From Gemmatimonadales bacterium (GTDB lineage: Bacteria > Gemmatimonadota > Gemmatimonadetes > Gemmatimonadales > GWC2-71-9): DNA of 34,183 nucleotides. Below the pieces are notes generated by a model. The model was not told the origin of the DNA, did no database searches, and saw only the letters and a list, made by a program, of their open reading frames with translations. The stretch spans positions 1-34,183 of the forward strand of contig DATEJD010000458.1 of the NCBI GenBank assembly GCA_035278325.1. Reading direction: 5' to 3'. Position 1 is the stretch's first letter; each line of letters opens with the position of its first letter. The position numbers and the translations under genes are program-made. Positions 10,822-33,936 of this stretch are shown here, one piece after another.

Positions 10822-10860
10822 GGCGAAAAGCGAGGGCGCCCTGCCCTGGCGGGCGCCCTT
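10822..10860 (-). terminator. Rho-independent terminator downstream of the GWxTD gene
   Basis: GGGCGCCC (10834-10841) pairs with GGGCGCCC (10851-10858); the 8-mer is self-complementary and the loop is 9 nt. On the minus strand it is followed by CTCGCTTTTCG. Confidence 0.6.
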
Positions 10861-10862
10861 GT

Positions 10863-10899
10863 CCCGGAGGAAGCCCCTGCCCCGGAGGAAGCCCCCTGC
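10863..10899. repeat. Tandem 18/19-bp direct repeat (CCCGGAGGAAGCCCC(C)TGC x2 plus a degenerate third copy to 10916)
   Basis: Read directly. It lies immediately 3' of the GWxTD stop. On the transcribed (minus) strand it reads GGGCAGGG...GGGGCAGGGGG...GGGGCAGGGG. Confidence 0.8.
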
Positions 10900-10916
10900 C
10901 CCGAGGCTTCCCTGCC

Positions 10917-18212: not shown

Positions 18213-18823
18213 GATGCCTCCTCGGCGCGTTCCCACCCCACCCCCATCTCCTGAAGTCGCTCCCGCAGGTCCGCCAGCCCGCGGTAGAGCAGGTTGCGCG
18301 TCTTGCCTTCGGTCCATCCCATCAGCTCCGCGATTTCCTCCCGCGGGTGACCGGTCAGGTACATCTTGACCACGGATCGGCGCGAGGCGGGGATCGTTTC
18401 GAGGGCCCGAGCGACCTGGTCGGCCACTTCCGAGCCCTCGAGCGCGCCGTGGGGATCGGGCGCGGGCTCCGCGAGGGTCACGGCAGCCCCCTCGTCGTCC
18501 AGGGACTGATGGTGCTCGGCCCGGCGGGAGCGCCGGCGGCGGATCACGTCGAGGGCGGCCGAGCTCGCCGTCCGGTATACGTAAGACGTGGAGACCTCGC
18601 CGATCTGCTCACTGGTGCGCTGCGCCCGCCACAGCCGGATACGGACTTCCTGCAGGACCTCGTCCACGTCGGAATCGTCCAGCCGGTAGCGTCGGCTCAC
18701 CTGACGGACCATGGCGCCGAATCGTGTGAGGACCGCCTCGACCGCGAGCGACAGATGGTGATCGGTTTCCGGCAGGGTCATGCCGGAAGTATCGAAGCCC
18801 CGGGCTGGAGGCGCCAGCGGCAC
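18209..18823 (-). CDS. ECF-type RNA polymerase sigma-70 family factor
   Basis: Region 2 (VRQVSRRYRLDDSDVDEVLQEVRIRLWRA) and region 4 (YLTGHPREEIAELMGWTEGKTRNLLYRGLADLRERL). Alternative start at ATG 18781. Confidence 0.85.
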   Translation of the reverse strand: MPLAPPARGFDTSGMTLPETDHHLSLAVEAVLTRFGAMVRQVSRRYRLDDSDVDEVLQEVRIRLWRAQRTSEQIGEVSTSYVYRTASSAALDVIRRRRSRRAEHHQSLDDEGAAVTLAEPAPDPHGALEGSEVADQVARALETIPASRRSVVKMYLTGHPREEIAELMGWTEGKTRNLLYRGLADLRERLQEMGVGWERAEEAS

Positions 18824-18842
18824 CTGTCCCTCTCAACGGGAA

Positions 18843-18868
18843 GGGGGCGTGCGGTGAGGCACGCCCCC
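18843..18868 (-). terminator. Strong GC hairpin / intrinsic terminator after the cupredoxin gene
   Basis: GGGGGCGTGC (18843-52) pairs with GCACGCCCCC (18859-68): a perfect 10-bp stem with a 6-nt loop, 20 nt past the stop at 18888. On the minus strand it is followed by TTCCCGTT. Confidence 0.65.
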
Positions 18869-18887
18869 TTCGTTGCCGCCCCGACGC

Positions 18888-19718
18888 CTAGCGTGCGGCG
18901 AGCTTCTCGCTCACCTGGAACTCCTGCATCATGCCATGCTGGTAGTGCGCCCGGCCGTCCTTCCGGTCAGTGAGGAAGCAGATGAGCGCATAGCGACCGG
19001 GCTCGAGGTCCACGTGCATGTAGGACGTCCGCCCCACGGCGAGCGGGCTCACGCCGCCCAGGGGCAGGCCGGGCGGTGTGCCCACGCCACGCTCGATGAA
19101 GTCGACCACGTCCTGCGGCGTCTTGCCCGGCGCCAGCTGCACCAGCTCGAACTCGTGCCACTGGGTGCCCTCGTTGCGCACCTCCAGCACGTGCTTGCCG
19201 GCCGAGAGCGGGCGCGAGAGGAAGAACGTGTAGTCGCGGAGCGTCATCACGGCGTCCGCCTTGGGGGTCCGGGCAGGCCTGGACGTGGTCACCACGGTCA
19301 CCTGGCGGACCATGCCCTTCATCATGTGCGACACACCATCCTTGCTCGGAATGAGGCAGGCGACGACGTAGGTGCCGGGCTCGAGCGTCACGGTTACCGT
19401 GGCCTCGCCGCCCTCGGGCCGCGGCGCGTTGGGACCGCCGATATCCTGGAGCCAGCTCGGCAACGGCTGGCGCGCGGCGAGCCCCTTCAGCACGTCGTCG
19501 ATGGTGTGGCCCCCCTCCATGCGGGCCATCCAGATGTGGTGCAGCTCCTTGCCCTGGTTGACCAGGCGGAGGGTCACCGCTCCGGCCGGCAGGGTGTCGG
19601 GGAGCTCGAGGCTGTAGTCATGAGCGGTCACGGTCACGCTAGGCGCCACGGGGGCACGGAACCCGAGCGCCAGGGGCAGGGCGGCAAGACTCAGCAGGGC
19701 GGCGAAGACGGACTTCAT
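18888..19718 (-). CDS. Secreted tandem cupredoxin-like protein (two internally duplicated domains with candidate type-1 Cu ligands)
   Basis: ATG 19718 with AGGAGA 7 nt upstream. Signal peptide MKSVFAALLSLAALPLALG. Domain 1: ...NQGKELHHIW...LEPGTYVVACLIPSKDGVSHMMKGM. Domain 2: ...NEGTQWHEFE...LEPGRYALICFLTDRKDGRAHYQHGMM. The track start 19955 is upstream, inside the cupin gene. Confidence 0.65.
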   Translation of the reverse strand: MKSVFAALLSLAALPLALGFRAPVAPSVTVTAHDYSLELPDTLPAGAVTLRLVNQGKELHHIWMARMEGGHTIDDVLKGLAARQPLPSWLQDIGGPNAPRPEGGEATVTVTLEPGTYVVACLIPSKDGVSHMMKGMVRQVTVVTTSRPARTPKADAVMTLRDYTFFLSRPLSAGKHVLEVRNEGTQWHEFELVQLAPGKTPQDVVDFIERGVGTPPGLPLGGVSPLAVGRTSYMHVDLEPGRYALICFLTDRKDGRAHYQHGMMQEFQVSEKLAAR

Positions 19719-19807
19719 GGGTGGTCTCCTGGGGTGGATGTCGCTCGTGTTTCCCGTCAGACGACCCTTGGTCCGAATTCTTCTCACGGCGCCCGCGGCC
19801 GGACTGG

Positions 19808-20251
19808 TTACTCCTTGATAAAGGCAGCTACGGCGGGATCCCGACGGAGCGCCGCCAGCGCCGAGGCATCCGGTCGCTCGGGCACGTCCCGATCGCAATC
19901 CACCATGCAGAGGAAGCCGAGCGGCTCGTCGCCCCACGTCTGGAACTGGTGCCAAGTGAGCGGCGGGACCCGCACGAGATCGTGGGTGCGCGCCTCGACG
20001 ATGTGGTCGCCGACGAACACGCGCGCGGCCCCTCGGATGACCATGACCGCATGCGCGTGATGATGCCGCTCGAGCGATGACCAGCCACCCGGCGCGACCT
20101 CGAAGTAGCGCAGCTCGCAGCCGAGCCCGTCCCCTCCCTGAAACAGCACCTGGCGGGTGATGCCCGAGAAATGGGTCCCCTCGCCCTTGTAGGGCTTGAC
20201 CTCGATGCCGTGCCAGCGGAACGGCTGCGTCTGGCGAACGTGCTCGCTCAT
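19808..20251 (-). CDS. Cupin-domain protein (147 aa), translationally coupled to the RuBisCO-like protein
   Basis: MSEHVRQTQPFRWHGIEVKPY...FEVAPGGWSSLERHHHAHAVMVIRGAARV...THDLVRVPPLTWHQF (cupin motifs 1 and 2). ATG 20251 overlaps the RLP stop as ATGA. The track ORF 19808..20917 is an out-of-context extension. Confidence 0.8.
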   Translation of the reverse strand: MSEHVRQTQPFRWHGIEVKPYKGEGTHFSGITRQVLFQGGDGLGCELRYFEVAPGGWSSLERHHHAHAVMVIRGAARVFVGDHIVEARTHDLVRVPPLTWHQFQTWGDEPLGFLCMVDCDRDVPERPDASALAALRRDPAVAAFIKE

Positions 20252-23117: not shown

Positions 23118-24062
23118 GTGCAGCACCCGATTCGCCACCTGCATCACGTCACCGCCACCGTGGCCGAGGCCCGCCCCGATCTGGCCTTCTGTCGCGGACT
23201 GCTGGGACTTCGTCTGGTCAAGCGCACCGTCAACTTCGACAATCACAACGTCTACCATTTCTACTACGGCACCGAGCAGGGCGCGCCGGGCACGATCTGG
23301 ACCACCTTCCCGTACGCGGGCTGGCAGGTGCCGCCGGGGACGCAGGGCGCGGGGCAGATCGTCGCGACCGCCTTCTCGGTGCCAGCCGGCAGCCTGGAGC
23401 TGTGGCGAGCCCGGGTGACCGCCGCCGGCCTCCCGGCCAACGAGGGTCACGATCCATTCGGAGCTCCGCAGCTGGCGATTCGCGATCCGTCCGGCCTGGT
23501 GCTCGAGCTGGTCGCCGACGAGCGCGATCGCCGCGCGCCGTGGCCCGGCGGTGGCGTCGACCGCGCGGCGGCGATCCGGGGCCTTCACGGCGTGACCCTC
23601 CTCCTCCGCGAGCGTGCACCGACCATATCCCTGATGACCGGCCTGCTCGGCTTCGCGGTGGTCGATGAAGGCCCCAACCGCACCCGGCTGGCCGTCGGCG
23701 GGAACGCGCCGGGACACCTGGTCGACCTCGTCGTCTCCGCGGATGCGCCACCGGCCCGGAACGGCCTCGGGACCGTACATCACGTGGCGTTCGCGATCGC
23801 CAGCGCGGAGGAACAGCTTCGGCTGCGCGCCGAGCTGGTGCGGCTGGGCCATGAGGTGACCCCGGTCCGCGACCGCACCTACTTCCAGTCGATCTACTTC
23901 CGCGAGCCCGGCGGGGTGTTGTTCGAGGTGGCCACGATGTCACCGGGCTTCACCTTCGACGAGCCGCTGGATCGACTGGGCAGCGGCCTCAAGCTGCCGC
24001 CGTGGGAGGAGCCGCACCGCGCCGCGATCGAGGCCGCGCTCCCGCCGCTCGGCCCAGAATGA
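23118..24062 (+). CDS. VOC-superfamily ring-cleaving dioxygenase / glyoxalase-family protein (two-module)
   Basis: IRHLHHVTATVAEARPDLAFCRGLLGLRLVKRTVNFDNHNVYHFYYG, a second module with VHHVAFAI, and YFQSIYFREPGGVLFEVAT. GTG start with GAGGAG 7 nt upstream. Confidence 0.75.
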   Translation: MQHPIRHLHHVTATVAEARPDLAFCRGLLGLRLVKRTVNFDNHNVYHFYYGTEQGAPGTIWTTFPYAGWQVPPGTQGAGQIVATAFSVPAGSLELWRARVTAAGLPANEGHDPFGAPQLAIRDPSGLVLELVADERDRRAPWPGGGVDRAAAIRGLHGVTLLLRERAPTISLMTGLLGFAVVDEGPNRTRLAVGGNAPGHLVDLVVSADAPPARNGLGTVHHVAFAIASAEEQLRLRAELVRLGHEVTPVRDRTYFQSIYFREPGGVLFEVATMSPGFTFDEPLDRLGSGLKLPPWEEPHRAAIEAALPPLGPE

Positions 24063-25288
24063 GCCGGAATCTGACGGTCCGGGTCCTCGTCGCCATCGTG
24101 CTGGGAGTGGCGGTCGGCGTGCTGTGGCCCGGGGTCGGGCAGGCCATGAAGCCGGTGGGCGACACCTTCGTGAACCTGGTCCGCATGGTGATCGCGCCGA
24201 TCATCTTCCTGACCATCGTCCTCGGCGTGGCGCACACGCGCGATCTCAACCGGGTCGGCCGGCTCGGACTCAAGGCGTTCGTGTACTTCGAGGTCGTCAC
24301 CACCTTCGCGCTGGCCATCGGCCTGATCATCGTGAACCTGGCGCGGCCGGGGCAGGGCATCGACGCGAGTCATCTGTCGGCCACGGACGTCGCTCGGGTC
24401 ACGAGCCAGGGCCAGGAGCTCCGGTTCGTGGACTTCCTGACCCACATCGTCCCATCGAGCGTGGTCGGCGCGTTCGCCCAGGGCGAGATCCTTCAGGTGG
24501 TCTTCTTCTCGATCCTGTTCGGCGTGGCGCTGGCCTCGCTCGGAGAGGCGGGGCGGACGGTCATCGGCCTGCTCGACGGCCTCATGCAGGTGTTCTTTCG
24601 GGTGGTCGCGATCGTCATGGTGGTGGCCCCCATCGGGGCGTTCGGAGCGATGGCCTACACCGTCGGGACGTTCGGCGTGGCCTCGCTGCTGTCGCTCGGG
24701 CGCCTCATGGCCTGCGTGTATGCGACGATGGCGCTCTTCATTCTGGTCGTCCTGGGGATCATCGCCCGGGTGTGGGGATTCAGTCTGTTTCGTCTGCTGG
24801 CCCACATCAGGGAGGAGATTCTCATCGTGCTGGGCACCTCCTCCAGCGAAGCGGTGCTTCCCCGGATGCTCGACCGGATGGAGCAGTTCGGCTGTGACCG
24901 CTCGGTCGTGGGCCTGGTGATCCCGGCGGGGTACTCGTTCAACCTGGACGGCACCTCCATCTACCTTTCGATGGCCACCCTGTTCATCGCGCAGGCTTAT
25001 GGCGTTCACCTGTCGGTAGGACACCAGCTGGCGGTGCTGGCCGTGCTGATGGTGACCTCGAAGGGAGCGGCGGGGGTGACCGGGTCGGGCTTCATCGTGC
25101 TGGCCAGCACCCTCTCGGCCCTGCGGGTCGTGCCGGTGGAAGGGGTGGCGCTGGTGCTGGGCGTGGACCGCTTCATGAGCGAGGCGCGCGCGATCACCAA
25201 CCTGATAGGCAACGCCGTGGCGACGGTCGTCATCGCGAAGAGCGAGGGCGCGTTCGCCCCTCACCTCAACCCATCCCCCGATGCCTGA
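24059..25288 (+). CDS. dctA: Dicarboxylate/amino acid:cation symporter (DAACS family, DctA-like)
   Basis: 409 aa from ATG 24059, which overlaps the upstream stop as ATGA. VRMVIAPIIFLTIVLG, GTSSSEAVLPRM, IPAGYSFNLDGTSIY, SKGAAGVTGSGFIVLA are DAACS hallmarks. Confidence 0.85.
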   Translation: MSRNLTVRVLVAIVLGVAVGVLWPGVGQAMKPVGDTFVNLVRMVIAPIIFLTIVLGVAHTRDLNRVGRLGLKAFVYFEVVTTFALAIGLIIVNLARPGQGIDASHLSATDVARVTSQGQELRFVDFLTHIVPSSVVGAFAQGEILQVVFFSILFGVALASLGEAGRTVIGLLDGLMQVFFRVVAIVMVVAPIGAFGAMAYTVGTFGVASLLSLGRLMACVYATMALFILVVLGIIARVWGFSLFRLLAHIREEILIVLGTSSSEAVLPRMLDRMEQFGCDRSVVGLVIPAGYSFNLDGTSIYLSMATLFIAQAYGVHLSVGHQLAVLAVLMVTSKGAAGVTGSGFIVLASTLSALRVVPVEGVALVLGVDRFMSEARAITNLIGNAVATVVIAKSEGAFAPHLNPSPDA

Positions 25289-26747
25289 CCGTCCGAAGTC
25301 GTGGCCCAGCAGTCTCCCTGCGGCGGCGTTGGCCCTGCTGGCCCCGCTGTCGCTCGCCGCTCAGGCGATCGGCCCCGAGGAATACGCCGCCCGGCGCGAT
25401 TCGCTCGCGGGCCGCCTGGGCGACGGCGTCGTGCTGGCCTTTGGGGCGCCGGCGCCGACCGGGGTCGAGCGCCAGGCCCAACTCCCCGCGTTCCGCTGGC
25501 TCACCGGCTTTCTCGAGCCGGACGCCGCGCTGGTGCTCGTTCTCAGTGGCGGCCGGGCGCGCGGGATCCTGTTCACCCAACCCCGCGATCCCCGTCGCGC
25601 GCTGTACGACGGCTTCCCTCCGGACTCGACCGCCGTCGCGCGTGCCACCGGGATGGAGGCGCGCTCGATCGCGGCGCTCGCCCCGATGCTGGACTCGCTG
25701 GTCGCCAGCAAGCCGACGCTGTTCACCCTCCGCGACTACGCGGGGAACGACTACGCGGAGAGCGATTCCCTCACACGGGGCGTCGCCTTCATGCGCGCCT
25801 TTTCGGCGCGGCATCCCGGGCTCGAGGTCCGCGACGCGCATCCCGTCACCGACAGCCTCCGGGCGCGGAAGAGTCCCGCCGAGCTGGCGCTGTTGCGCCG
25901 GGCGATCGACGTGACCGTGGCCGCGCAGCGCGAGGCGATGGCGATGGTGCGCCCGGGGGTGTGGGAGTATCAGATCGACGCCCTGTTCGCCGCCGCCTTT
26001 CGGCGGACCGGCGGCGACGGGCCGGCGTTCGGCTCGATCATAGGCTCGGGCCCCAACTCCACCCAGTACCACTACGAGACCAACAACCGGCAGATGCGGG
26101 CCGGCGACGTCGTGGTAATGGACGTCGGCGCCGGCTGGGCGGGCTACGCGGCGGACGTGACCCGCACCATCCCGGTGAGCGGCCGGTTCACCCCCGATCA
26201 GCGCGCGATCTATGAGATCGTCCGCGACGCGCAGCGGGCGGCGGAGCGGGTGGCCGGGCCCGGCGCGCCATACCAGGCGTGGCGCGACTCGGCGCGAGCG
26301 GTGGTGGCGCGCGGGGTCGCCCGGCTGGGCCTCACCGAGGGGGTGGATGCCACGTTCGATCCACCGTGGGCCGACCAGTGCCGGGTGGAAGCGGTGCGCT
26401 GTACCCAGGCGTTCCTCTACATGGCCCACGGCCTCGGGCACGGCATCGGGCTCGAGGTCCACGACCCGCCCCACCCCTGGAAGGCCACCGGGAGCTTCGC
26501 GCCAGGCGACGTGTTCACCATCGAGCCCGGGGTCTACGTGAGCACGCGACTGCTCGACATCCTCCCCGACACGCCGAAGAACCGGTCCATGATCGCCAAG
26601 GTCCGGGCAGCCGTGACCCGCTACAACAACATCGGCATCCGGATCGAGGACGATTACGCCATCACCCCAACCGGCGTCGAGTGGCTGAGCCGCGCTCCGC
26701 GCGAGCCCGCCGAGATCGAGTCCGCCATGGCGCGGCGTGGCCGCTAG
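25281..26747 (+). CDS. Secreted Xaa-Pro aminopeptidase (M24B family)
   Basis: Signal peptide ...LPAAALALLAPLSLAAQA. DVVVMDVGAGWAGYAADVTRT, HGLGHGIGLEVHDPP, VFTIEPGVY, GIRIEDDY (pita-bread metal ligands). 8-nt overlap with dctA. Confidence 0.85.
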   Translation: MPDRPKSWPSSLPAAALALLAPLSLAAQAIGPEEYAARRDSLAGRLGDGVVLAFGAPAPTGVERQAQLPAFRWLTGFLEPDAALVLVLSGGRARGILFTQPRDPRRALYDGFPPDSTAVARATGMEARSIAALAPMLDSLVASKPTLFTLRDYAGNDYAESDSLTRGVAFMRAFSARHPGLEVRDAHPVTDSLRARKSPAELALLRRAIDVTVAAQREAMAMVRPGVWEYQIDALFAAAFRRTGGDGPAFGSIIGSGPNSTQYHYETNNRQMRAGDVVVMDVGAGWAGYAADVTRTIPVSGRFTPDQRAIYEIVRDAQRAAERVAGPGAPYQAWRDSARAVVARGVARLGLTEGVDATFDPPWADQCRVEAVRCTQAFLYMAHGLGHGIGLEVHDPPHPWKATGSFAPGDVFTIEPGVYVSTRLLDILPDTPKNRSMIAKVRAAVTRYNNIGIRIEDDYAITPTGVEWLSRAPREPAEIESAMARRGR

Positions 26748-27360
26748 CGGCGCCCGGCGGTCGGTCTGGCCGCTGCTGCTCGCACTGCTGCTGTTCGGGC
26801 TGGCGGTGGTGGTGGGCCGTGGCGTGGCCCGCGGCGCGGCGCCGCTGCGGCGGCTCACCGGTGAAACCACGGTCAGCCAGTCGGTCGTCGTGGAGCAGAC
26901 CCGCGCGGTCGCTCGGCTGGTGACCAGCGAGACGATGCTGCGCGACGTGGTGATCTACCAGAACAGCCGGCTCGGCTCGACCAAACGCTCGCTGGTCGTG
27001 GTGACCGGCAAGGTGCTGACCGGGTTCGATCTGGACCGCGGCACCGAGGTCACGGTGGATCATCCGTCGCACCGCATCGTGGTCACCCTGCCCCCGCCGG
27101 GCGTCATGGGGGTGGAGATCACCGAGCTCAAGACCTACGACGAGCAGCGGGGACTGTGGAATCCGTTCCACCCCGCCGACCGCGACACCATCTTCGCGCT
27201 GGCTCGCGAGCGGCTGGTGCAGGCCGCCAACGAGGTCGAGCTCGCGCACCACACCGAGGAGAGTGCTCGCCGGCTGCTGGAGGCCACGGTGCGGGCGGAG
27301 GGATACACGACCGAGGTTCGGTTCGGCCTCCCACCCGCGCCGGCCGACACCGAGCGCTGA
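26737..27360 (+). CDS. DUF4230-like membrane-anchored protein
   Basis: N-terminal TM helix (WPLLLALLLFGLAVVV). ...VARLVTSETMLRDVVIY...VVVTGKVLTGFDL...IVVTLPPPGVMGVEI pattern resembles DUF4230. GTG start overlaps the aminopeptidase stop by 11 nt. Confidence 0.6.
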   Translation: MAASGARRSVWPLLLALLLFGLAVVVGRGVARGAAPLRRLTGETTVSQSVVVEQTRAVARLVTSETMLRDVVIYQNSRLGSTKRSLVVVTGKVLTGFDLDRGTEVTVDHPSHRIVVTLPPPGVMGVEITELKTYDEQRGLWNPFHPADRDTIFALARERLVQAANEVELAHHTEESARRLLEATVRAEGYTTEVRFGLPPAPADTER

Positions 27361-27371
27361 AGGAGCCGGGG

Positions 27372-27944
27372 ATGCTGGCGTACGTGTTCTGGCACTGGCG
27401 GCGTCCGACGGTGACGGCACCCGTCTACGAGGAGGCCCAGCGCCGCTTCCATGCCGCGCTGGCCGCGGCGCCGCCGCCCGGGTTCGAGCGCTCGTTCTCC
27501 GTCTCGATCCGGGGCGCCCCGTGGGCGGCCAATCGGGGTGAGGCATACGAGGACTGGTATCTGCTCGACGGATCGGCGGCGCTCGATCCGCTCAACACAG
27601 CCGCGATCAGCGCGTCCCGCCAGGCGCCCCACGATGCCGCCGCCGCGCTGGCCGCCGGGGGCACGGCCGGCCTCTATTCGCTGCGGCAGGGCACGCCGGT
27701 GATACCGCCCGCCACGCTGACCTGGTTCGCCAAGCCAGACGGCATGACCCATCGCGATCTCTTCGCCAGGCTGGAGCCGCTGGTCGGACCGGCCGGTGGG
27801 GCGCTCTGGTGCCGGCAGATGACCCTCGGCCCGGCACTCGAATTCTGCCTTCACAGTCGGGAGCCGATTGGCTTGCCGGCGCCGATTGCGCCGTTCGTGG
27901 TGGGGTGCCGTGGAGTGTGGCCGATAGGGCCGATAGGACGATAG
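27372..27944 (+). CDS. Hypothetical protein (190 aa); last 8 codons and the stop lie inside the octamer repeat array
   Basis: ATG 27372 preceded by AGGAG at 6 nt. MLAYVFWHWRRPTV... Coding-like GC3. Ends ...VWPIGPIGR with TAG at 27942-27944 supplied by the repeat. The track start 27156 overlaps the upstream gene. Confidence 0.6.
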   Translation: MLAYVFWHWRRPTVTAPVYEEAQRRFHAALAAAPPPGFERSFSVSIRGAPWAANRGEAYEDWYLLDGSAALDPLNTAAISASRQAPHDAAAALAAGGTAGLYSLRQGTPVIPPATLTWFAKPDGMTHRDLFARLEPLVGPAGGALWCRQMTLGPALEFCLHSREPIGLPAPIAPFVVGCRGVWPIGPIGR

Positions 27945-27978
27945 GACGATAGGGCGATAGGGCGATAGGGCGATAGGG
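27922..27978. repeat. Left octamer array: 7 tandem units of CGATAGGG/CGATAGGA
   Basis: Units at 27922, 27931, 27939, 27947, 27955, 27963 and 27971, with one extra C at 27930. The last four units (27947-27978) are perfect CGATAGGG. Confidence 0.95.
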
Positions 27979-28014
27979 CGGCGTGAAGCCAGTCGACTCC
28001 CTCATCCCAAGTGC

Positions 28015-28067
28015 AGCGAGGGATCTTCTCCGCGGGTATGGAAGCCCGTTCGAGAAGATCCCTCGCT
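28015..28067. repeat. Perfect 16-bp inverted repeat (AGCGAGGGATCTTCTC / GAGAAGATCCCTCGCT) with a 21-nt loop containing a nested CGGG/CCCG mini-stem
   Basis: Arms at 28015-28030 and 28052-28067, read directly. It sits near the centre of the convergent intergenic region; likely a bidirectional terminator or REP-like core. Confidence 0.9.
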
Positions 28068-28099
28068 CCGCTCGGGACGGGGAACCGCGCTACGGCGGC

Positions 28100-28167
28100 C
28101 CCTATCGCCCTATCGCCCTATCGCCCTATCGTCCTCAAACGCCCTATCGCCCTCAAACGTCCTATCG
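28100..28167. repeat. Right octamer array: inverted copies CCCTATCG x4, then TCCTCAAACG, CCCTATCG, CCCTCAAACG, TCCTATCG
   Basis: 28100-28131 is the exact reverse complement of 27947-27978 (32 bp). The outer units are degenerate, with CAAA insertions. Confidence 0.95.
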
Positions 28168-28172
28168 TCCCC

Positions 28173-29114
28173 TTACGGCGTGACCGTCAGCTGCAGCGTC
28201 ACGAGCGAGCAGCCGATCGGCGTGCTGCAGGCGATCACCTCGAGTCCCGAGCTGGTCAGCGCGGCGATGAGGTCGCCGTTCACGAGGCCGGTGGTGTAGC
28301 TCAGCGCGGGCTGGCCGAAGTACACCGTCCAGGTGTTGGCCGGCGACGCGTTGTCCGTGCCGAGGAGGATGCCCGCGCCGGTCGTGGTGCCGGTTCCGCC
28401 ATCATAGATGAGCTGCGCGACGACCGAGCCGTTGGAGTAGAAGTTGAGCACGCGATCGCCGCTGCCATCGTTGGCATCGAACAACTGGGCCTGCGGGGAG
28501 AAGGTCAGCACCAACGACGTGGTCGTGGCACCGGTGATGGCGCACTTCGAGTGGAACGGGTGCGTCTGCTGCCCGCCCGGGTTGATCCACAGGCCCGGAA
28601 AGCCGTCCGCCGATGTGACGCACTGGCCCTTGCCGTTGTTGCCGGTGCCGCTGGTCCCATAGTCGATGCAGTTCGGATTATGGGGTCCGAAGACGTTACC
28701 GTTCGGATCGGTCCAGAACCCGTTCGCGCTACAGGTACCCTGGCCATAGAGGCCGGTGCCCGAGGTCTTGAACACCAGGGCCGTGCTGCTGCCCGTGGTA
28801 CCGGCGCTTCCGCTGCCGGCCGGGTCGAAGGTGCCGGGGTCCACGGGCTGGATCGTGGGTGGCGTCCCGTCCGGAGAGGTCCAACCCCCATTGGCAACGG
28901 GATCGCCCGCGCCGGTCGTGTCCGGCGGGGGTGTGGACGTGGTGTCGCCCCCGCCGCTGCTGGATCCACCCGGGAAGCCGGGCGTGCGCGGACCCCCGGG
29001 CACCGGGGTGTCGCGGGTGGGGGATCCTGAGGGGGCGGTCAGGGTGTCTGCCTGGGAGCAGGCGGTGAAGGCTAAGGCCGCGACCAGCGCGGTAGCGAGG
29101 CGGTGTCGGAACAC
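28173..29114 (-). CDS. Orphan secreted lipoprotein, Gly/Thr/Pro-rich linker plus Cys-containing C-terminal domain; no recognisable family
   Basis: GTG 29114 preceded by AAGGAG at 7 nt. VFRHRLATALVAALAFTAC lipobox. 6 further Cys (GTCSANGFW, NPNCIDY, GQCVTS, SKCAIT, IACSTPIGCS). The track start 29153 is less likely. Confidence 0.7.
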   Translation of the reverse strand: MFRHRLATALVAALAFTACSQADTLTAPSGSPTRDTPVPGGPRTPGFPGGSSSGGGDTTSTPPPDTTGAGDPVANGGWTSPDGTPPTIQPVDPGTFDPAGSGSAGTTGSSTALVFKTSGTGLYGQGTCSANGFWTDPNGNVFGPHNPNCIDYGTSGTGNNGKGQCVTSADGFPGLWINPGGQQTHPFHSKCAITGATTTSLVLTFSPQAQLFDANDGSGDRVLNFYSNGSVVAQLIYDGGTGTTTGAGILLGTDNASPANTWTVYFGQPALSYTTGLVNGDLIAALTSSGLEVIACSTPIGCSLVTLQLTVTP

Positions 29115-29121
29115 GATGACT

Positions 29122-29250
29122 CTCCTTCGACGTTCACAAGGGTGAGCCGGCATGTAGCCGGCATCAGCCCCTTCGACGGCCAGGCTGTCTCAGAGAGACC
29201 CTTGGCTTTGCGGACCGGCCTCGCGACCGGGGTGCCCTGAGTCGAAGGGA
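29122..29250 (-). promoter_or_regulatory. Structured 5' leader of the lipoprotein mRNA with alternative anti-SD pairings
   Basis: On the minus-strand RNA, UCCCUUCGAC (29250-29241) can pair with GUCGAAGGGG (29177-29168) or with GUCGAAGGAG (29131-29122, which contains the SD). A GCCGGC/GCCGGC hairpin lies at 29146-29162. Confidence 0.4.
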
Positions 29251-29282
29251 ACAGGGAACACTGGTTTCGGACGGGTAGTAAA

Positions 29283-29297
29283 GCAACGTGGGTGCCA
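29283..29297 (-). promoter_or_regulatory. Sigma-54 (RpoN) -24/-12 promoter
   Basis: The minus strand reads cTGGCACccacgTTGCTt, an exact TGGCAC-N5-TTGC with 10 nt between GG and GC. It is intergenic and correctly oriented, about 170 nt upstream of the lipoprotein GTG. My manual scan of both strands found no other TGGCAC-N5-TTGC match. Confidence 0.6.
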
Positions 29298-29444
29298 GAT
29301 CCATAAGCCACTGTCGCGGAAGCACTTGCGCTGCAGCTGACGATCTGGCCGCGGTGTCGTATGCCGCGACATGCGAGGACCCTAGAGAGAATTCGGCCGG
29401 CTGGAAGCTGAACGCCTAGCGCCCACCAATACATTGACAGGACG

Positions 29445-30713
29445 ATGACCCGCCGCCCCCACTACGCCTGGATCACCCTCGCCGTCACGTTCCTGGCGCT
29501 CCTGGCCGGCGCCGGCATCCGGGCCACGCCCAGCGTCCTCATCGTGCCGCTCGAGCAGGAGTTCGGCTGGAGCCGCTCGACCATCTCGTTCGCGATCTCG
29601 GTCAACATCTTTCTGTACGGCCTCATGGGCCCCTTTGCCGGGGCCCTGATGCAGCGGTTGGGCATCCGGCGCACTACGATCGGCGCCCTGACCCTGCTGG
29701 CGGCCGGCGTGGCGCTCGCCACGCGGGTGACCGAGCCATGGCAGCTCGTGCTGGTATGGGGCGTCATCGTCGGCCTCGGCAGCGGGATGGTCGCGCTGGT
29801 GCTGGGCGCCACGGTGGTGAACCGCTGGTTCCGCGCGCGGCGCGGCCTGGCGATGGGCCTGCTCACCGCGAGCACCGCCACCGGCCAACTGGTGTTCCTC
29901 CCGCTGCTCGCGACCGTGATCGAGCGGCACGGGTGGCGGGACGCCGCCCTGGTGGTGGCCGCGGCCGCGGCGGTGATTATCCCGATCGTCGCGCTGTTCC
30001 TTCGAGAGCGACCGTCGGATCTCAGACTCCCACCCTACGGGGCCGCCGAGGTCGAGCGGCTTTCCACCGGCGGACCCAACGCAGCGCGGATTGCGCTGGC
30101 GGCGCTGGGCGAAGGGGCGCGCTCGCGCGACTTCTGGCTGCTGTTCGCCACGTTCTTCATCTGCGGGGCGTCGACCAACGGGCTGATCGGCACGCACCTG
30201 GTACCGGCCGCGCACGACCACGGGATTCCCGAGGTCCGCGCGGCGAGCCTCCTCGCGCTCATGGGAGTGTTCGACCTGGTAGGCACCACTGGCGCCGGCT
30301 GGCTGTCGGACCGGTGGAGCAGCCGGCATCTGCTGGCGTGGTACTACGGGCTGCGGGGACTCTCGCTCTTCTTCCTGCCATTCGCCCTGGGCGGGCCGAC
30401 GGCCGGCCTCTGGGTCTTCGCGGTCTGGTACGGACTGGACTGGATCGCCACCGTTCCGCCGACCCTACGACTGGCGAATGACGCGTTCGGGCCAGAGCGC
30501 GCGCCGATCATGTTCGGATGGATCGGCGCCGGCCACCAGGTCGGGGCGGCGCTCACCGCCTTCTCGGCCGGGTGGATCCGGACCGTGCTGGGCGACTACC
30601 AGGTCGCGTTCTGGGTCTCGGGGATGCTGTGCCTGCTCGCGGCGGTGCTGGCGCTGCAGATAGGAACTCGGCCGGCGCGGGTGGCCGGCATGCCCGCTGA
30701 GGCGGCGGCCTGA
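29445..30713 (+). CDS. MFS transporter (12 TM; oxalate/formate-antiporter or YbfB-like subfamily)
   Basis: 422 aa. HYAWITLAVTFLALLAGAGIRATPSVLIVPLEQEFGWSRSTISFAISV... is typical of this MFS_1 subgroup, with hydrophobic helices throughout. Confidence 0.8.
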   Translation: MTRRPHYAWITLAVTFLALLAGAGIRATPSVLIVPLEQEFGWSRSTISFAISVNIFLYGLMGPFAGALMQRLGIRRTTIGALTLLAAGVALATRVTEPWQLVLVWGVIVGLGSGMVALVLGATVVNRWFRARRGLAMGLLTASTATGQLVFLPLLATVIERHGWRDAALVVAAAAAVIIPIVALFLRERPSDLRLPPYGAAEVERLSTGGPNAARIALAALGEGARSRDFWLLFATFFICGASTNGLIGTHLVPAAHDHGIPEVRAASLLALMGVFDLVGTTGAGWLSDRWSSRHLLAWYYGLRGLSLFFLPFALGGPTAGLWVFAVWYGLDWIATVPPTLRLANDAFGPERAPIMFGWIGAGHQVGAALTAFSAGWIRTVLGDYQVAFWVSGMLCLLAAVLALQIGTRPARVAGMPAEAAA

Positions 30714-30746
30714 GCGATCGGAACGTGGGGCCCTGGGCGAGCGGAA

Positions 30747-30770
30747 TCCTTCGCGTCCTTCGTCCCTTCG
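30747..30770. repeat. Short tandem array TCCTTCG-cg-TCCTTCG-TCCCTTCG (minus strand CGAAGGGA CGAAGGA CGCGAAGGA)
   Basis: Read directly in the MFS / ATP-grasp convergent intergenic region. It is followed at 30812-30842 by CCCCTTCGCTTCGCTCAGGCTGACTCAGGC. Confidence 0.7.
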
Positions 30771-30874
30771 TGGTGAAGAGCCGCCGGATGCGAGCATGCT
30801 CCAATGCATGTCCCCTTCGCTTCGCTCAGGCTGACTCAGGCTAAGACGCCTCACGTCTCCGTGGTTCCGACGCC

Positions 30875-32329
30875 CTACGCCTCGCCCACCACCGGCCGCG
30901 ACCGGCTCACCAGCACCCCGCAGAGCCCGCCGTGCTGCGCCACGTTCACCACCTGCTTTTGCGATGCCCGCGCCAGGATCGCCACGCCGTCCTCCCCCGC
31001 CGCGAAACCCATCACCGTATAGAACGGCTCCACGTGCACTACGCCGTCGCTCCCCACCACCGGGAACTCGCGCACGGGGATCGTCGCCACCTGCTGGACT
31101 ACCCAGCGGTCGTCTTCGTCGGCGAGGGCAGTGGCCAGCGCGGCATCCCACTCGTCGCGAGTCACCGCCGGCCCGATCACGATGCCGTCGCCGCCATAGG
31201 CGCGGTTGGGCTTGAGCACCAGCGCTTCGTGGTGGCCGCGGGCGAAGTCCAGCAGGTGGCCCGACTGCCCGTCGGGCAGGGTCGTGCGCCGGTCGCCGAG
31301 CACACGGGTCCACAGGATGTGGCGTTGGAAGATCTGCCGCTCCGCCGGCGTGAAGTGCTGGCGGCACAGGCGCGGATCGGTCAGGACCTCCCAGCACGCC
31401 TTCTGGTCGAGGTCCGCCGCGATCGAAGAGACGACGCGATTCTCCCTGAGCAGCATGCGCATGGGCTCCACGTCCACGCCATCGGCCGCGAGCTCCAGCA
31501 GGTCCACCACACCGTAGTCGCGATAGGCGAGATCGACCCGCTGGTCCAGATACCACACTGCGCCGTCGCGCAGGGTGAGCTCCGAGGGGTCGGCGTGCAT
31601 GACGGTGAGTCCGTGGCGCTCGTGCAGGTAGCGCGCGAGGAGCGCCTGCTCGTCGGGTCCGTTGCCGGCGTACTTGGGCTCGACAAAACAGACGCCGGGT
31701 CCGGCGCCGATCGCGGCCATGTGCTCGAGCAGCACCCCGGTGAGCAGCTCCCGGATGTCCTTCCCCGCGGCCAGGTCCAGCCCGGTGTCGCCGCTTCGGA
31801 GCACCGGGACCACGATGCTCTCGATCAGCCGCTCGCAGGCCGGCACGATGTGCAGGCCGCCGATACCCATCATGTTCGGCTCGACGAACCGGAGCGACTC
31901 CTTCCACATGGGGCTGGTGAAGTCCACCAATGCGTCCAGCCGGCCGAATACCGGATTGCTGACCTCGTGACCCGGCCCCCAGCATTCGCGCAGCCAGGCT
32001 TCCTCCTCGTCGGGCAGCCGCAGGATCTCGCGCACGGTGAAGTCGTGGAGATAGAGCGACGGCAGCCGCTTGAGCGCGTTCTGCACCGTGAGCGTCACAT
32101 GGTGCACGTACGCCAGCTGGTCGGGCAGGATGGTGATGGGCGCCGGCAGGATCCGGATCGGCTCGACGTCGCCCTCGTGCAGGTACACCACGTGATCGGC
32201 GACGGCGCCGGCTCTGAGCCGCTCGATGATCCCGGCGAGCTCGGTGGGGGCCAGGCGATAGAGCGCGTGCTGGACCCGGCTGGCGAGCGCCAGCCCGGCG
32301 AGGCCATGCTCCTCGGCAGGGGTCAGCAT
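30875..32329 (-). CDS. ATP-grasp-like protein (circularly permuted type-2 ATP-grasp / glutathionylspermidine-synthase-like superfamily), function unknown
   Basis: 484 aa from ATG 32329 (GGAG 6 nt upstream). FGRLDALVDF...LRFVEPNMMGIGGL, LVLKPNRAYGGDGIVIG and QKQVVNVAQHGGLCGVLV resemble those families. Assigned from motif memory only. Confidence 0.55.
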   Translation of the reverse strand: MLTPAEEHGLAGLALASRVQHALYRLAPTELAGIIERLRAGAVADHVVYLHEGDVEPIRILPAPITILPDQLAYVHHVTLTVQNALKRLPSLYLHDFTVREILRLPDEEEAWLRECWGPGHEVSNPVFGRLDALVDFTSPMWKESLRFVEPNMMGIGGLHIVPACERLIESIVVPVLRSGDTGLDLAAGKDIRELLTGVLLEHMAAIGAGPGVCFVEPKYAGNGPDEQALLARYLHERHGLTVMHADPSELTLRDGAVWYLDQRVDLAYRDYGVVDLLELAADGVDVEPMRMLLRENRVVSSIAADLDQKACWEVLTDPRLCRQHFTPAERQIFQRHILWTRVLGDRRTTLPDGQSGHLLDFARGHHEALVLKPNRAYGGDGIVIGPAVTRDEWDAALATALADEDDRWVVQQVATIPVREFPVVGSDGVVHVEPFYTVMGFAAGEDGVAILARASQKQVVNVAQHGGLCGVLVSRSRPVVGEA

Positions 32330-32424
32330 CGGCACTCCGTCGCGGCGGGTGACGGGGGAACATGTGTATGTTACTCCCGGACCATCCCCACGCAACGACG
32401 GCCCGCTCACCCCTCAAGGACTTC

Positions 32425-33936
32425 ATGCGCGCGGACCAGGCCTACGACCAGCTGATGCAGCGGGTGCGGGAAGAGAGCATCCTCACCAGCATCGAGGCGC
32501 TCCTCGAGTGGGACGAGGAGACCTACATGCCGGCCGGGGGCGTCGAGAACCGGAGCGAGCAGCTCGCGCTGGTGGCCGGGCTGCTCCACTATCGCGGCAC
32601 CGATCCACGGCTGGGCGAGCTGCTCGATGCGCTGGAAGGCTCGGAGCTCCTCGCCGACCCGTCGTCGCCGGCGGCGGTGAACGTGCGGGCGGTCCGCCGC
32701 GAGTACGACCGATTCATCCGGCTGCCCCGCCGGCTGGTGGAGGACGTCGCCCGGACTACGGCGTTGGCCCAGACCGCCTGGGCCGACGCGCGCGCCGCGG
32801 CGGACTTCGCCCGCTTTCGACCTTGGCTCGAGCGGATCGTGAGCCTCAAGCGGCAAGAGGCCGAGTGCGTCGGGTACGCCGATGAGCCGTACGACGCGCT
32901 GCTCGAGGACTACGAGCCCGGCCTGCGGAGCCGGGTGGTGGCCCGCCTGTTCACCGCCCTCCGGCGCGAGCTGGTCCCGCTGGCCGCGCGGATCGCGGAT
33001 GCGCCTCGCCGTCCCGACCCGTCCGTGTTGCGGCGGCACTTCCCGCGCGACCGCCAGCGGCGATTCGGCGAGCGGGTGGCCACCGCGGTGGGGTTCGACT
33101 TCCGGCGCGGACGCATGGACCTGGGCGTGCACCCCTTCTGCACCGGCCTCGGGACCGGCGACTGTCGGATCGCGGTCCGGTTCGATGAGCGCGACTTCGC
33201 GGGCGGGCTGTTCACGATTCTGCACGAGGTGGGGCACGCGCTGTACGAGCAGGGCCTCGACCCCGAGCACTACGGGACGCCACTCGGCGAGGCAGCCTCC
33301 GTCGGGATGGACGAGGCGCAGGCGCGGTTCTGGGAGAACCGCGTCGGCCGCGATCGCCATTTCTGGGAGCACTTCTATCCCCAGGCGCGAGACCACTTTC
33401 CCGAGAGCCTGGGCGACGTGCCCCTGGATGAGCTGCACTTCGCCGTCAACCGGGTGGCGCCGTCGCACGTCCGGGTCAACGCCGACGAGGTCACCTACAA
33501 CCTCCACGTGATGATCCGATTCGACCTGGAGCGCGCCCTCATCTCGGGGGCATTGCCGGTGGCGGAGCTGCCGGAGGCCTGGAGCGCCGCGTGCCGCGAG
33601 ACGCTCGGGCTCACTCCCCGAAACGACGCCGAGGGCTGCCTCCAGGATGGCCACTGGGCCGATGGCATGATCGGCTACTTCCCCACCTACACACTGGGCG
33701 ACGTGTTCGCGGCCCAGCTCTTCGCGGCCGCCGAGCGAGCGCTCGGCCCGCTGGGCGAGCAGTTCGCCCGAGCCGAGTTCGCGCCGCTGCTCGGCTGGCT
33801 CGGCCGCACGGTGTACCGCCAGGGCGCCCGGTACCCATCGGCGCGCCTGATCGAGGTGGTGACCGGCTCGCCACCCGACCACCGGCCGCTGGTGGCGATG
33901 CTCAAGGCCAAGTACGAGGAGTTGTACGGGATCTGA
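32425..33936 (+). CDS. M32-family (Taq-like) zinc carboxypeptidase
   Basis: 503 aa from ATG 32425 (AAGGA 4 nt upstream). GVHPFCTG, GDCRIAVRFDE, LHEVGHALYEQG (HExxH), GMDEAQARFWEN, VNADEVTYNLHVMIRFDLE, IGYFPTYTLG. Confidence 0.9.
   Translation: MRADQAYDQLMQRVREESILTSIEALLEWDEETYMPAGGVENRSEQLALVAGLLHYRGTDPRLGELLDALEGSELLADPSSPAAVNVRAVRREYDRFIRLPRRLVEDVARTTALAQTAWADARAAADFARFRPWLERIVSLKRQEAECVGYADEPYDALLEDYEPGLRSRVVARLFTALRRELVPLAARIADAPRRPDPSVLRRHFPRDRQRRFGERVATAVGFDFRRGRMDLGVHPFCTGLGTGDCRIAVRFDERDFAGGLFTILHEVGHALYEQGLDPEHYGTPLGEAASVGMDEAQARFWENRVGRDRHFWEHFYPQARDHFPESLGDVPLDELHFAVNRVAPSHVRVNADEVTYNLHVMIRFDLERALISGALPVAELPEAWSAACRETLGLTPRNDAEGCLQDGHWADGMIGYFPTYTLGDVFAAQLFAAAERALGPLGEQFARAEFAPLLGWLGRTVYRQGARYPSARLIEVVTGSPPDHRPLVAMLKAKYEELYGI

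Follow-up and report, generated by a model that had tools for sequence, protein, structure and literature searches.

Contig DATEJD010000458.1 of a Gemmatimonadales bacterium (the window, by which we mean the whole analysed stretch of 34,183 nt) carries, between two convergent genes, a nested palindrome at positions 27922-28170, on which sequence reading, a repeat finder and Tandem Repeats Finder (TRF) were concordant. This module consists of two mirror-image tandem arrays around an inner hairpin that resembles a pair of repetitive extragenic palindromic sequences (REPs). The upstream gene (27372-27944, + strand) encodes a 190-aa protein without a Pfam match, and its last residues, IGPIGR, and its TAG stop codon come from the left array. 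The downstream gene (28173-29114, - strand) encodes a 313-aa putative lipoprotein, likewise without a Pfam match, and its stop codon lies 2 nt past the right array. The 228-bp gap between the two stop codons (27945-28172) is filled by the module, as a first-pass annotation made from the sequence alone had described.

The left array (27922-27980, G-rich on the + strand) comprises 7.2 units of CGATAGGG, or GCGATAGG in the register used below, with a 94% match, and its outermost units are 9-mers (GCCGATAGG). The right array (28100-28170, G-rich on the - strand) reads as CCCTATCG units on the + strand, with four perfect units and TCCT followed by an 18-nt period (TRF) of an octamer plus a CAAA-containing 10-mer, of which there are two. 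TRF and the repeat finder bore out the earlier description of a left octamer array, a reverse-complement array on the right and two CAAA variants on the right side only. The perfect inverted repeat between the arrays (27943-27978 with 28100-28135, 100% complementary) encloses 121 nt, as annotated before, but is 36 nt rather than 32 nt long, and each of its arms carries a single variant unit (AGGA/TCCT), in matching positions. Between the arrays, a left spacer (27981-27999) without complementarity to the right spacer (28083-28099, delimited by sequence reading) leads to the left REP arm (28000-28030, + strand), which is composed of a CCTC tag (28000-28003), ATCCCAAG (28004-28011), the loop TGCAG (28012-28016), CGAGGGAT (28017-28024) and the tail CTTCTC. 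The right REP arm (28052-28082, - strand) has CCCCGTCCCGAGCGGAGCGAGGGATCTTCTC as its reverse complement and a decayed tag region (CCCC...GT). The 21-nt loop between the two arms (28031-28051) contains a small nested stem and corresponds to the site of a GIY-YIG nuclease gene in full-length relatives. Within the 31-nt arms, which are 84% complementary, 28015-28030 and 28052-28067 form 16 perfect pairs, so that the central stem and its nested mini-stem were as first described.

Two-unit octamer matches numbered 8 in the window against 0.02 expected. Folding of both transcript orientations, which had been proposed as a check, gave -178.2 kcal/mol (z -13.9) for the + strand RNA of 27915-28175 (261 nt) and -186.7 kcal/mol (z -15.2) for the - strand RNA, and the DNA fold was -96.8 kcal/mol (z -11.8). 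The reading frame of the 190-aa protein takes its final six or seven sense codons ((P)IGPIGR) from the array, together with its TAG stop; the stop but not the count of eight codons agreed with the first-pass annotation. Homologues of this protein are mostly 184-185 aa long and end in ...VWP plus zero or one residue. An identical module is present on a second contig (L043; L numbers denote individual loci), which comes from an ENA metagenome assembly and whose gene calls give the same gene limits. Because the module is identical on two contigs, an assembly artefact is unlikely; both look like short-read metagenome assemblies, and the exact unit count per array may be collapsed. An Rfam scan of the whole window at gathering thresholds and a scan of 27850-28250 at E <= 10 returned only generic long-hairpin models for the module, far below thresholds.

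REPs are among the commonest bacterial repeats, and to our knowledge only their GTAG class has a known enzyme, the REP-associated tyrosine transposase (RAYT). The CGTC class was defined in a 2013 survey (Di Nocera, De Gregorio and Rocco, PMC3733652) by an unpaired CGTC tag (TGTC and CCTC being allowed), a stem of 8-9 bp whose first two positions are A,T, a loop of 4-5 nt and a short tail with the consensus CCA. According to the same survey, CGTC REPs occur mostly as head-to-head dimers between convergent or same-direction open reading frames (ORFs), some of them within longer palindromes; the group includes Neisseria dRS3 and Rickettsia RPE-4 and RPE-6, was reported from five phyla, Gemmatimonadota not among them, and "apparently lack[s] a dedicated transposase" (PMC3733652).

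Judged by its sequence, the inner hairpin of the module is probably a head-to-head dimer of a CGTC-type REP that departs from the class in two details, the stem and the tail. The family arm can be parsed as a (C/T)GTC tag, ATCCCGAG, CGNAG, CGAGGGAT and CTT. The tag is CCTC in the left arm of the window, decayed in the right arm, and TGTC or CGTC in relatives; the loop is TGCAG against the family consensus CGNAG; and the two units stand with their tags outside and 21 nt between them. The statement of the first-pass annotation that the structure is not a standard REP therefore did not hold for the centre, which matches the published CGTC-tagged layout and the head-to-head dimer form. The arm consensus tGTCATCCCGAGCGnAGCGAGGGATCt recurs in at least 120 soil-metagenome stretches of 40 to 73% GC, usually as inverted pairs whose loop is mostly 13-56 nt among the matches listed. 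Like the published elements, the family combines a terminal CGTC/TGTC/CCTC tag, an A,T stem start, a 5-nt loop and inverted units that form one long hairpin, lies between convergent or same-direction ORFs and sometimes supplies the gene ends, has dimers nested in longer palindromes, and encodes peptides (VIPSEARDL here, VIPAKAGI in Rickettsia; PMC3733652 supplement). Unlike the published stems of 8-9 perfect pairs, the eight positions of ATCCCAAG/CGAGGGAT form in the family consensus five plus one Watson-Crick pairs around a tandem G.A/A.G (ATCCC/GGGAT, then the mismatches, then G-C), and in the window copy the sixth position is an A.C mismatch, leaving only five pairs. In alphaproteobacterial relatives, which flank genes of this same family, the 9-bp stem is perfect. 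The tail is CTT in Gemmatimonadales and CTG in most metagenome copies instead of CCA. The phylum Gemmatimonadota and the outer palindrome of tandem 7-8-nt arrays likewise distinguish the family from the published elements. As a separate observation, tandem partial duplications with a period of 17-23 nt, comprising the outer half of a REP and a few flanking bases, are present at L073, L090, L113, L124, L180 (2833-2880) and L194 (735-800). These REP-end duplications occur at the element boundary in several phyla, which suggests a recurrent slippage or repair process.

In full-length Gemmatimonadales copies, a gene for a UPF0213-type GIY-YIG nuclease of about 100 aa lies between the two REPs. We started from a small ORF beside the array in L013 and searched the hairpin loci by tblastn; four of the five matches lay within about 120 nt of an arm, a near zone that makes up 7% of the DNA. 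At the exception, L162, about 500 nt separate the gene from the closest consensus arm, and a diverged REP variant stands next to the gene. At L158 the ORF occupies exactly the space that two perfect inverted arms enclose and is in frame with one of them. The ORFs match PF01541 (GIY-YIG) with E values from 1e-11 to 1e-15, and the nearest solved structure is that of the UPF0213 protein BH0048 (PDB 1ZG2). NCBIfam gave no specific name for the nuclease, and current annotation reads only "GIY-YIG nuclease family protein" or "UvrC-like". About 30 of the 71 homologues of the L158 ORF, which include Gemmatimonadales-named proteins, end in (D/G)PSLRSG directly before the stop, that is, in the arm translated in frame. 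An exhaustive family search yielded 13,385 cluster representatives at E <= 1e-3, and the arm-encoded peptide end was found in at least 13 of the best 149 representatives (at 50% identity or less). A GIY-YIG gene is also present in L013 (3900-4229, - strand; a Gemmatimonadales metagenome-assembled genome, MAG), between convergent genes and about 90 nt from a CCTATCGC array, with no recognisable REP arms.

The association of REPs with this gene extends to plasmids and chromids. A tblastn search of PLSDB with the Gemmatimonadales protein gave 36 records, whereas blastn of the full element against PLSDB gave no match; ten of the loci were read (L190-L199), and all ten have CGTC-, TGTC- or CCTC-tagged REPs beside the GIY-YIG gene. 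They span Alpha-, Beta- and Gammaproteobacteria, Cyanobacteria and Bacteroidota. The gene is nested between two inverted REPs in Novosphingobium pNL2, Shinella, Sphingobium and Rhizobium CIAT894, and it stands between two REP dimers in Azospirillum lipoferum AZO_p3, Neisseria gonorrhoeae (dRS3), S. meliloti (Sinorhizobium) pSymB and Planktothrix. A REP dimer lies about 70 nt upstream of the gene in Spirosoma, and two REPs lie about 150 nt downstream of it in Photobacterium. For AZO_p3, a 648-kb replicon, the 2013 census gives only two CGTC-1 head-to-head dimers (PMC3733652), and the one GIY-YIG gene that we found there is flanked by two such dimers (L190, Azospirillum lipoferum 4B AZO_p3 255118-256178, between sufB and sufC). 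Whereas the survey reported no dedicated enzyme, a GIY-YIG gene is flanked by such REPs here and at all ten of these other loci. Literature searches on the octamer, the arms, Gemmatimonas repeats and UPF0213/COG2827/YhbQ returned, within the searchable library, no paper that joins GIY-YIG proteins with REPs. A description elsewhere is possible, and both the array decoration of REPs and the GIY-YIG partnership appear to be undescribed so far.

The module belongs to a family dispersed in Gemmatimonadales. When one genome of each species was scanned for three octamer units, 42 loci were returned, mostly in Gemmatimonadales MAGs and with one Chloroflexi MAG, and the scan of viral contigs for three units gave no match. 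At the Gemmatimonadales loci the arrays lie at gene ends, the units vary (GCGATAGG, GCGAGAGG, GCGATGGG and others), and many arrays have an inverted partner. L019 and L027 have the full layout of the window, namely (GCGATAGG)n, the same hairpin arms and (CCCTATCG)n. BLAST similarity to the window was confined to 27919-28194 for L019, L027, L010, L173 and L187, and the genomic contexts are therefore unrelated. The context is convergent in the window, L010, L027 and L187; the crude gene caller, based on third-codon-position GC, missed real genes and was relied on only alongside sequence reading. L173 reads (GGTAAGC)x4, a 20-mer x5, REP, GIY-YIG ORF, REP and (CCGCTCA)x4. Three array-REP-X-REP-array modules lie within 20 kb in L187, bracketed by GGTGAGC- or GCGGGGA-type heptamers, where X is in one case each a loop of about 35 nt, a GIY-YIG ORF and an IS3-family element. 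The copy with the 35-nt loop, which folds at -121 kcal/mol, is the direct analogue of the window module, and the IS3-family element (18808-20003, HTH_Tnp_1 + rve) sits inside the REP-dimer loop with the heptamer arrays kept on both sides. In L010 an array is accompanied by a short palindrome of arm ends. This palindrome (5880-5902, CATCCCGAGCGCAGCTCGGGATG) has a perfect 10-bp stem, contains only the outer halves of two REPs beside a 4-unit octamer array, and may reflect an interior deletion or be the footprint of an excision.

Arrays also occur without REPs. Array-only inverted pairs were found at L187 3590-3671 (CACAGAGG/CCTCTGTG), L033 2805-2975 (GCGAGAGG) and L038 311-544 (GAGCGATA/ATCGCTCA), and L017 has a further array palindrome without a REP; from their sequences, array-only hairpins look like a general habit of Gemmatimonadales intergenic DNA. 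Arrays of (GCGATAGG)n in Burkholderiales, Streptomyces, Chloroflexi and Bacteroidales are one-sided and have neither an inverted partner nor a REP. Such one-sided arrays, of at most 13 units, are present in Pandoraea, Paraburkholderia, Cupriavidus, Casimicrobiaceae and Streptomyces (L025, L030, L040, L024, L028 and L008/L022/L039, including the Chloroflexi MAG, whose arrays mix GCGATAGG, GCGATAGT and GCGATAAT); the scan of other phyla targeted the GCGATAGG unit only, and enrichment cannot be judged from it. In one Gemmatimonadales MAG, two contigs (L001 3749-3806 and L004 2196-2253) share a repeat of about 58 nt (gcgaaccgaaggtacgagtttctcgcgtggactccttccacctc...) right after a (GCGATAGG)n array. 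A different tandem repeat, with an 18-nt unit (CCCTGCCCCGGAGGAAGC x3.6, 80% match), lies at 10839-10903 of the window.

Around REP arms the arrays have a fixed orientation. Tandem arrays with units of 5-12 nt, for the most part 7-8 nt, are concentrated near the arms of the 120 hairpin loci, where their density in the +-200 nt around an arm is 3.8 times that of the remaining DNA, and 27 of 196 arms have an array on their outer side within 130 nt. In 25 of these 27 arrays it is the G-rich strand that leads into the REP, the observations being partly non-independent. A stop codon is present in the array unit on the REP-ward G-rich strand in 11/27 cases against 1/27 on the opposite strand; because periods of 7 and 8 are no multiples of three, a stop-bearing unit closes all three frames within three units. 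Several genes terminate within arrays and end in ...AIGR and the stop codon. As a further observation, the gene at L013 4336-5067 (- strand) has the C-terminus ...GERAIGR, encoded up to its stop by a CCTATCGC array, and from sequence alone reads like a MutY-type glycosylase.

The unit sequence and period vary between genomes and modules (GCGATAGG, GGTGAGC, GCGGGGA, GGTAAGC, GGGAACC and GGCTAGTT), and most units lack a G3 run in each period. Since the unit is not conserved between genomes, the arrays contain no conserved recognition sequence, which counts against a conserved array-binding protein and against the suggestion in the first-pass annotation of a protein-binding array. Readings of the unit as an FtsK-orienting polar sequence (KOPS), as Chi or as a CsrA sponge were dropped because the unit varies across modules. 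The G-quadruplex spacing noted before is present in the window, where G3-N5 x4 is formed by GGGCGATA x4 at 27951-27978 on the + strand and mirrored on the - strand, but it is not family-wide and is not shared by the sister modules, whose heptamers (such as GGTGAGC or GCGGGGA) mostly have no G3 run in each period. The REP arms of the window carry two mismatches each against the consensus, unlike the perfect 36-nt match of the arrays with its shared variant unit, which suggests that the arrays were symmetrised by copying across the palindrome, the REP arms being older.

Homologues of the 190-aa protein carry Gemmatimonadales names, and at five syntenic orthologous loci (L044, L045, L046/47/48, L049/50 and L172; 75-82% protein identity) the module is absent. 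There, the same two convergent genes are 59-81 bp apart, and the gap holds a GC hairpin (AAAGGGGG...CCCCCUUUG) bordered by short A- and T-runs (as in CAAAGGGGGTGAGCC-CGGC-GGGCTCACCCCCTTTGG), with compensatory changes between lineages in its stems and folding energies of -34 to -56 kcal/mol. This pattern marks a terminator-like hairpin under selection; in a simple terminator scan the orthologous hairpins stayed below the threshold, and they have only TTT as a T-run. Units resembling GGGCGATA follow directly on the stop codon at the orthologous loci, between one and three of them per locus (in L044, GGGCGATAGGGCGATAGG). The right-hand array and the central hairpin of the window occur in none of the five, and the ancestral AAAGGGGG...CCCCCTTT hairpin is wholly absent from the window locus. 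In a sixth relative, L171, which is by a small margin the closest relative of the window protein, the contig breaks off within a (GGGCGATA)n array at the same position. Because the five orthologous loci have the ancestral hairpin and the seed and no module, the module is most simply read as a lineage-specific gain that displaced an ancestral terminator-like hairpin at a site with a pre-existing octamer seed. Beside this locus, Rfam places a c-di-GMP-I riboswitch (RF01051) at 29172-29246 (- strand), with 43.8 bits where the gathering score is 35, just upstream of the gene for the 313-aa putative lipoprotein, and this riboswitch contains a small hairpin, GTCTC...GAGAC, that is conserved in the orthologous locus L046.

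Taking these results together, we consider it likely that the module is a gene-less copy of a dispersed Gemmatimonadales family in which a CGTC-type REP dimer is bracketed by inverted 7- or 8-nt arrays and whose fuller copies hold a GIY-YIG gene, and that it displaced the ancestral hairpin. By analogy, the window copy would relate to the enzyme-bearing members as a REPIN (a REP doublet that forms a hairpin) or a miniature inverted-repeat transposable element (MITE) relates to its partner. Among the roles listed in the first-pass annotation, a novel small mobile element fits best, since the family is dispersed at unrelated loci and absent from the five orthologous positions. The suggested comparison with relatives came out both ways: the family is multi-copy and conserved, whereas the module is absent at orthologous loci and lacks a target-site duplication. 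Among other conditions, that annotation had expected its case to fail for an element that was single-copy, absent from orthologous loci and unconserved, and of these three only the absence applies.

Mechanistically, the GIY-YIG nuclease might spread REP dimers through homing or through cleavage of DNA at a REP or a cruciform, while the arrays would expand by replication slippage and keep their mirror symmetry through copying across the palindrome. The whole structure may serve both convergent genes as a shared 3'-end hairpin that acts as a transcription barrier and RNA stabiliser, and the G-rich arrays would halt translation in every frame, with TAG recurring at a period of 8. A role as terminator or RNA-stability module, also proposed earlier, is plausible from position, in that the module appears to replace a conserved terminator-like hairpin.

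Several points weigh against this interpretation. No copy was observed to move, and there is no target-site duplication, the flanks instead extending the palindrome (ACT|GTCAT...ATGAC|AGT). The array-REP spacers differ among the window, L019 and L027, and the 250-bp unit was therefore not recently copied as one block. Moreover, 169 of the 196 metagenome arms are without arrays, the REP stem is imperfect (5 bp, a tandem G.A/A.G mismatch and 1 bp in the consensus) rather than 8-9 bp and perfect, and the 34-kb window contains no GIY-YIG gene. We also know of no transposase that is a 100-aa GIY-YIG protein consisting of the catalytic domain only. With regard to termination, there is no U-tract or T-run on either side of the module, and a terminator scan of 27300-29400 does not flag it. 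Finally, the GGGCGATA seed at the orthologous "empty" sites indicates that part of the left array may predate the REP dimer, so that the arrays may be a property of the host site and not of the element.

This last point leads to an alternative that we regard as unlikely, in which short array palindromes would be native simple-sequence terminators of these genomes and would admit the REP dimer, whether or not it carries its GIY-YIG gene, at their centre via structure-specific cleavage and repair, the arrays giving dispersed homology. The octamer seed would favour such landing pads, as would the REP-free arrays, both palindromic and single, of the same genomes. So would the central position of the REP dimer within the array palindrome in the window, L019, L027, L173 and L187, the dimers of other REP families that are nested in longer palindromes (PMC3733652), and the IS3-family element that likewise landed in such a loop. 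However, the two mini copies of L187 have a common right-arm variant and a similar arm-to-array spacer, which would favour co-copying of array and REP, and the orthologous empty sites have a left-hand seed only and no array palindrome.

It is very unlikely that the module is a purely local product, that is, an ordinary bidirectional terminator made of a terminator hairpin and slippage-grown octamers with no link to mobile DNA. The GGGCGATA units that orthologous loci already have by their terminator-like hairpin, the REP-free array palindromes elsewhere (L033, L038, L017 and L187 3590-3671) and the exact filling of the gap between two convergent stops are in keeping with it. Nevertheless, the inner hairpin differs from the ancestral one, which is wholly gone, and its conserved arm recurs at unrelated loci and in the metagenome stretches, which for the centre largely refutes this explanation; the module also has no U-tract and a negative terminator scan. 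Least probable of all is that the arrays are the functional core, as G-quadruplexes or protein-binding sites that might, for example, pause replication, bind nucleoid proteins or a regulator, or act as a CsrA-like GGA sponge, with the hairpin being incidental. In its favour are the fit of (GGGCGATA)4 to the G3-N1-7 motif, which holds for the sense strand of either gene, the strongly non-random polarity relative to the REP (25/27) and the same octamer at several Gemmatimonadales gene ends. Set against it are units that vary in sequence and period and mostly miss G3 runs, the prediction that in RNA or extruded DNA a perfect duplex of 36 bp would hold the G-rich arm fast, and an Rfam search that gives nothing past generic long-hairpin models.

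Our preferred reading, a gene-less copy of a REP-dimer family, can be set beside known systems. MITEs such as the Neisseria Correia elements are small, non-coding, intergenic elements with terminal inverted repeats, and they form a long RNA hairpin that can end or destabilise transcripts. With 31-nt arms of 84% complementarity and a non-coding length of about 250 bp the module is similar, although it has no target-site duplication, its partner gene encodes a nuclease domain only and no classical insertion-sequence transposase, and it has array flanks. Cyanobacterial short tandemly repeated repetitive (STRR) heptamer arrays are lineage-specific and intergenic and consist of head-to-tail 7-8-nt units; here, unlike in STRRs, mirror-image array pairs with fixed strand polarity surround a REP dimer. 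Bidirectional intrinsic terminators share with the module the position of the orthologous hairpin and a very stable stem on both strands, whereas the module lacks an A- or U-tract, is five times longer and is repeat-derived. The first-pass annotation was right that the layout is neither CRISPR nor iteron: the 8-nt units abut each other, whereas CRISPR repeats measure 20 nt or more with unique spacers between them and iterons are 17-22 bp long and adjoin a rep gene, and a Pfam scan of seven flanking ORFs (24002-32426) and of the 17 called genes of L043 found no cas or rep gene. REPINs and RAYTs (Bertels and Rainey 2011, PMC3116915) provide the nearest parallel to the partnership, with two inverted REPs as a non-autonomous hairpin, an enzyme gene flanked by cognate REPs, and intergenic 3' positions. 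The present family differs in that it has no GTAG tag, that the gene encodes a GIY-YIG protein (PF01541) and no IS200-like Y1 transposase, and that its GIY-YIG genes, at least in some genomes, appear to be present in several rapidly diverging copies and not in a single one.

The core of the module is thus of a known kind, the CGTC-type REP dimer, while the outer palindrome of tandem arrays and the GIY-YIG partnership are new as far as checked. More tentatively, and at somewhat less than an even chance, we propose that CGTC REPs are partnered by UPF0213/COG2827 GIY-YIG nucleases in a nuclease-based "REPtron" parallel to the GTAG-REP/RAYT system, which in Gemmatimonadales also builds, or homes into, array palindromes at gene ends. 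The presence of a GIY-YIG gene inside or between CGTC-type REP dimers is consistent across six phyla or classes. If the proposal is true, a nuclease-based REPtron would answer the 2013 question of the enzyme for CGTC REPs, and it would offer a candidate role for a very large orphan protein family with its 13,385 representatives. For annotation, the modules account for contig breaks, for spurious short ORFs (VIPSEARDL, DPSLRSG) and for odd C-terminal tails such as ...AIGR before a stop codon. What Gemmatimonadales add to REPs, and what appears to be undescribed for them, is the mirror-image arrays of 7-8 nt with fixed polarity, which replace ordinary terminators and lengthen genes by a few codons; if true, this system would make all-frame translational stops and giant bidirectional 3' hairpins.

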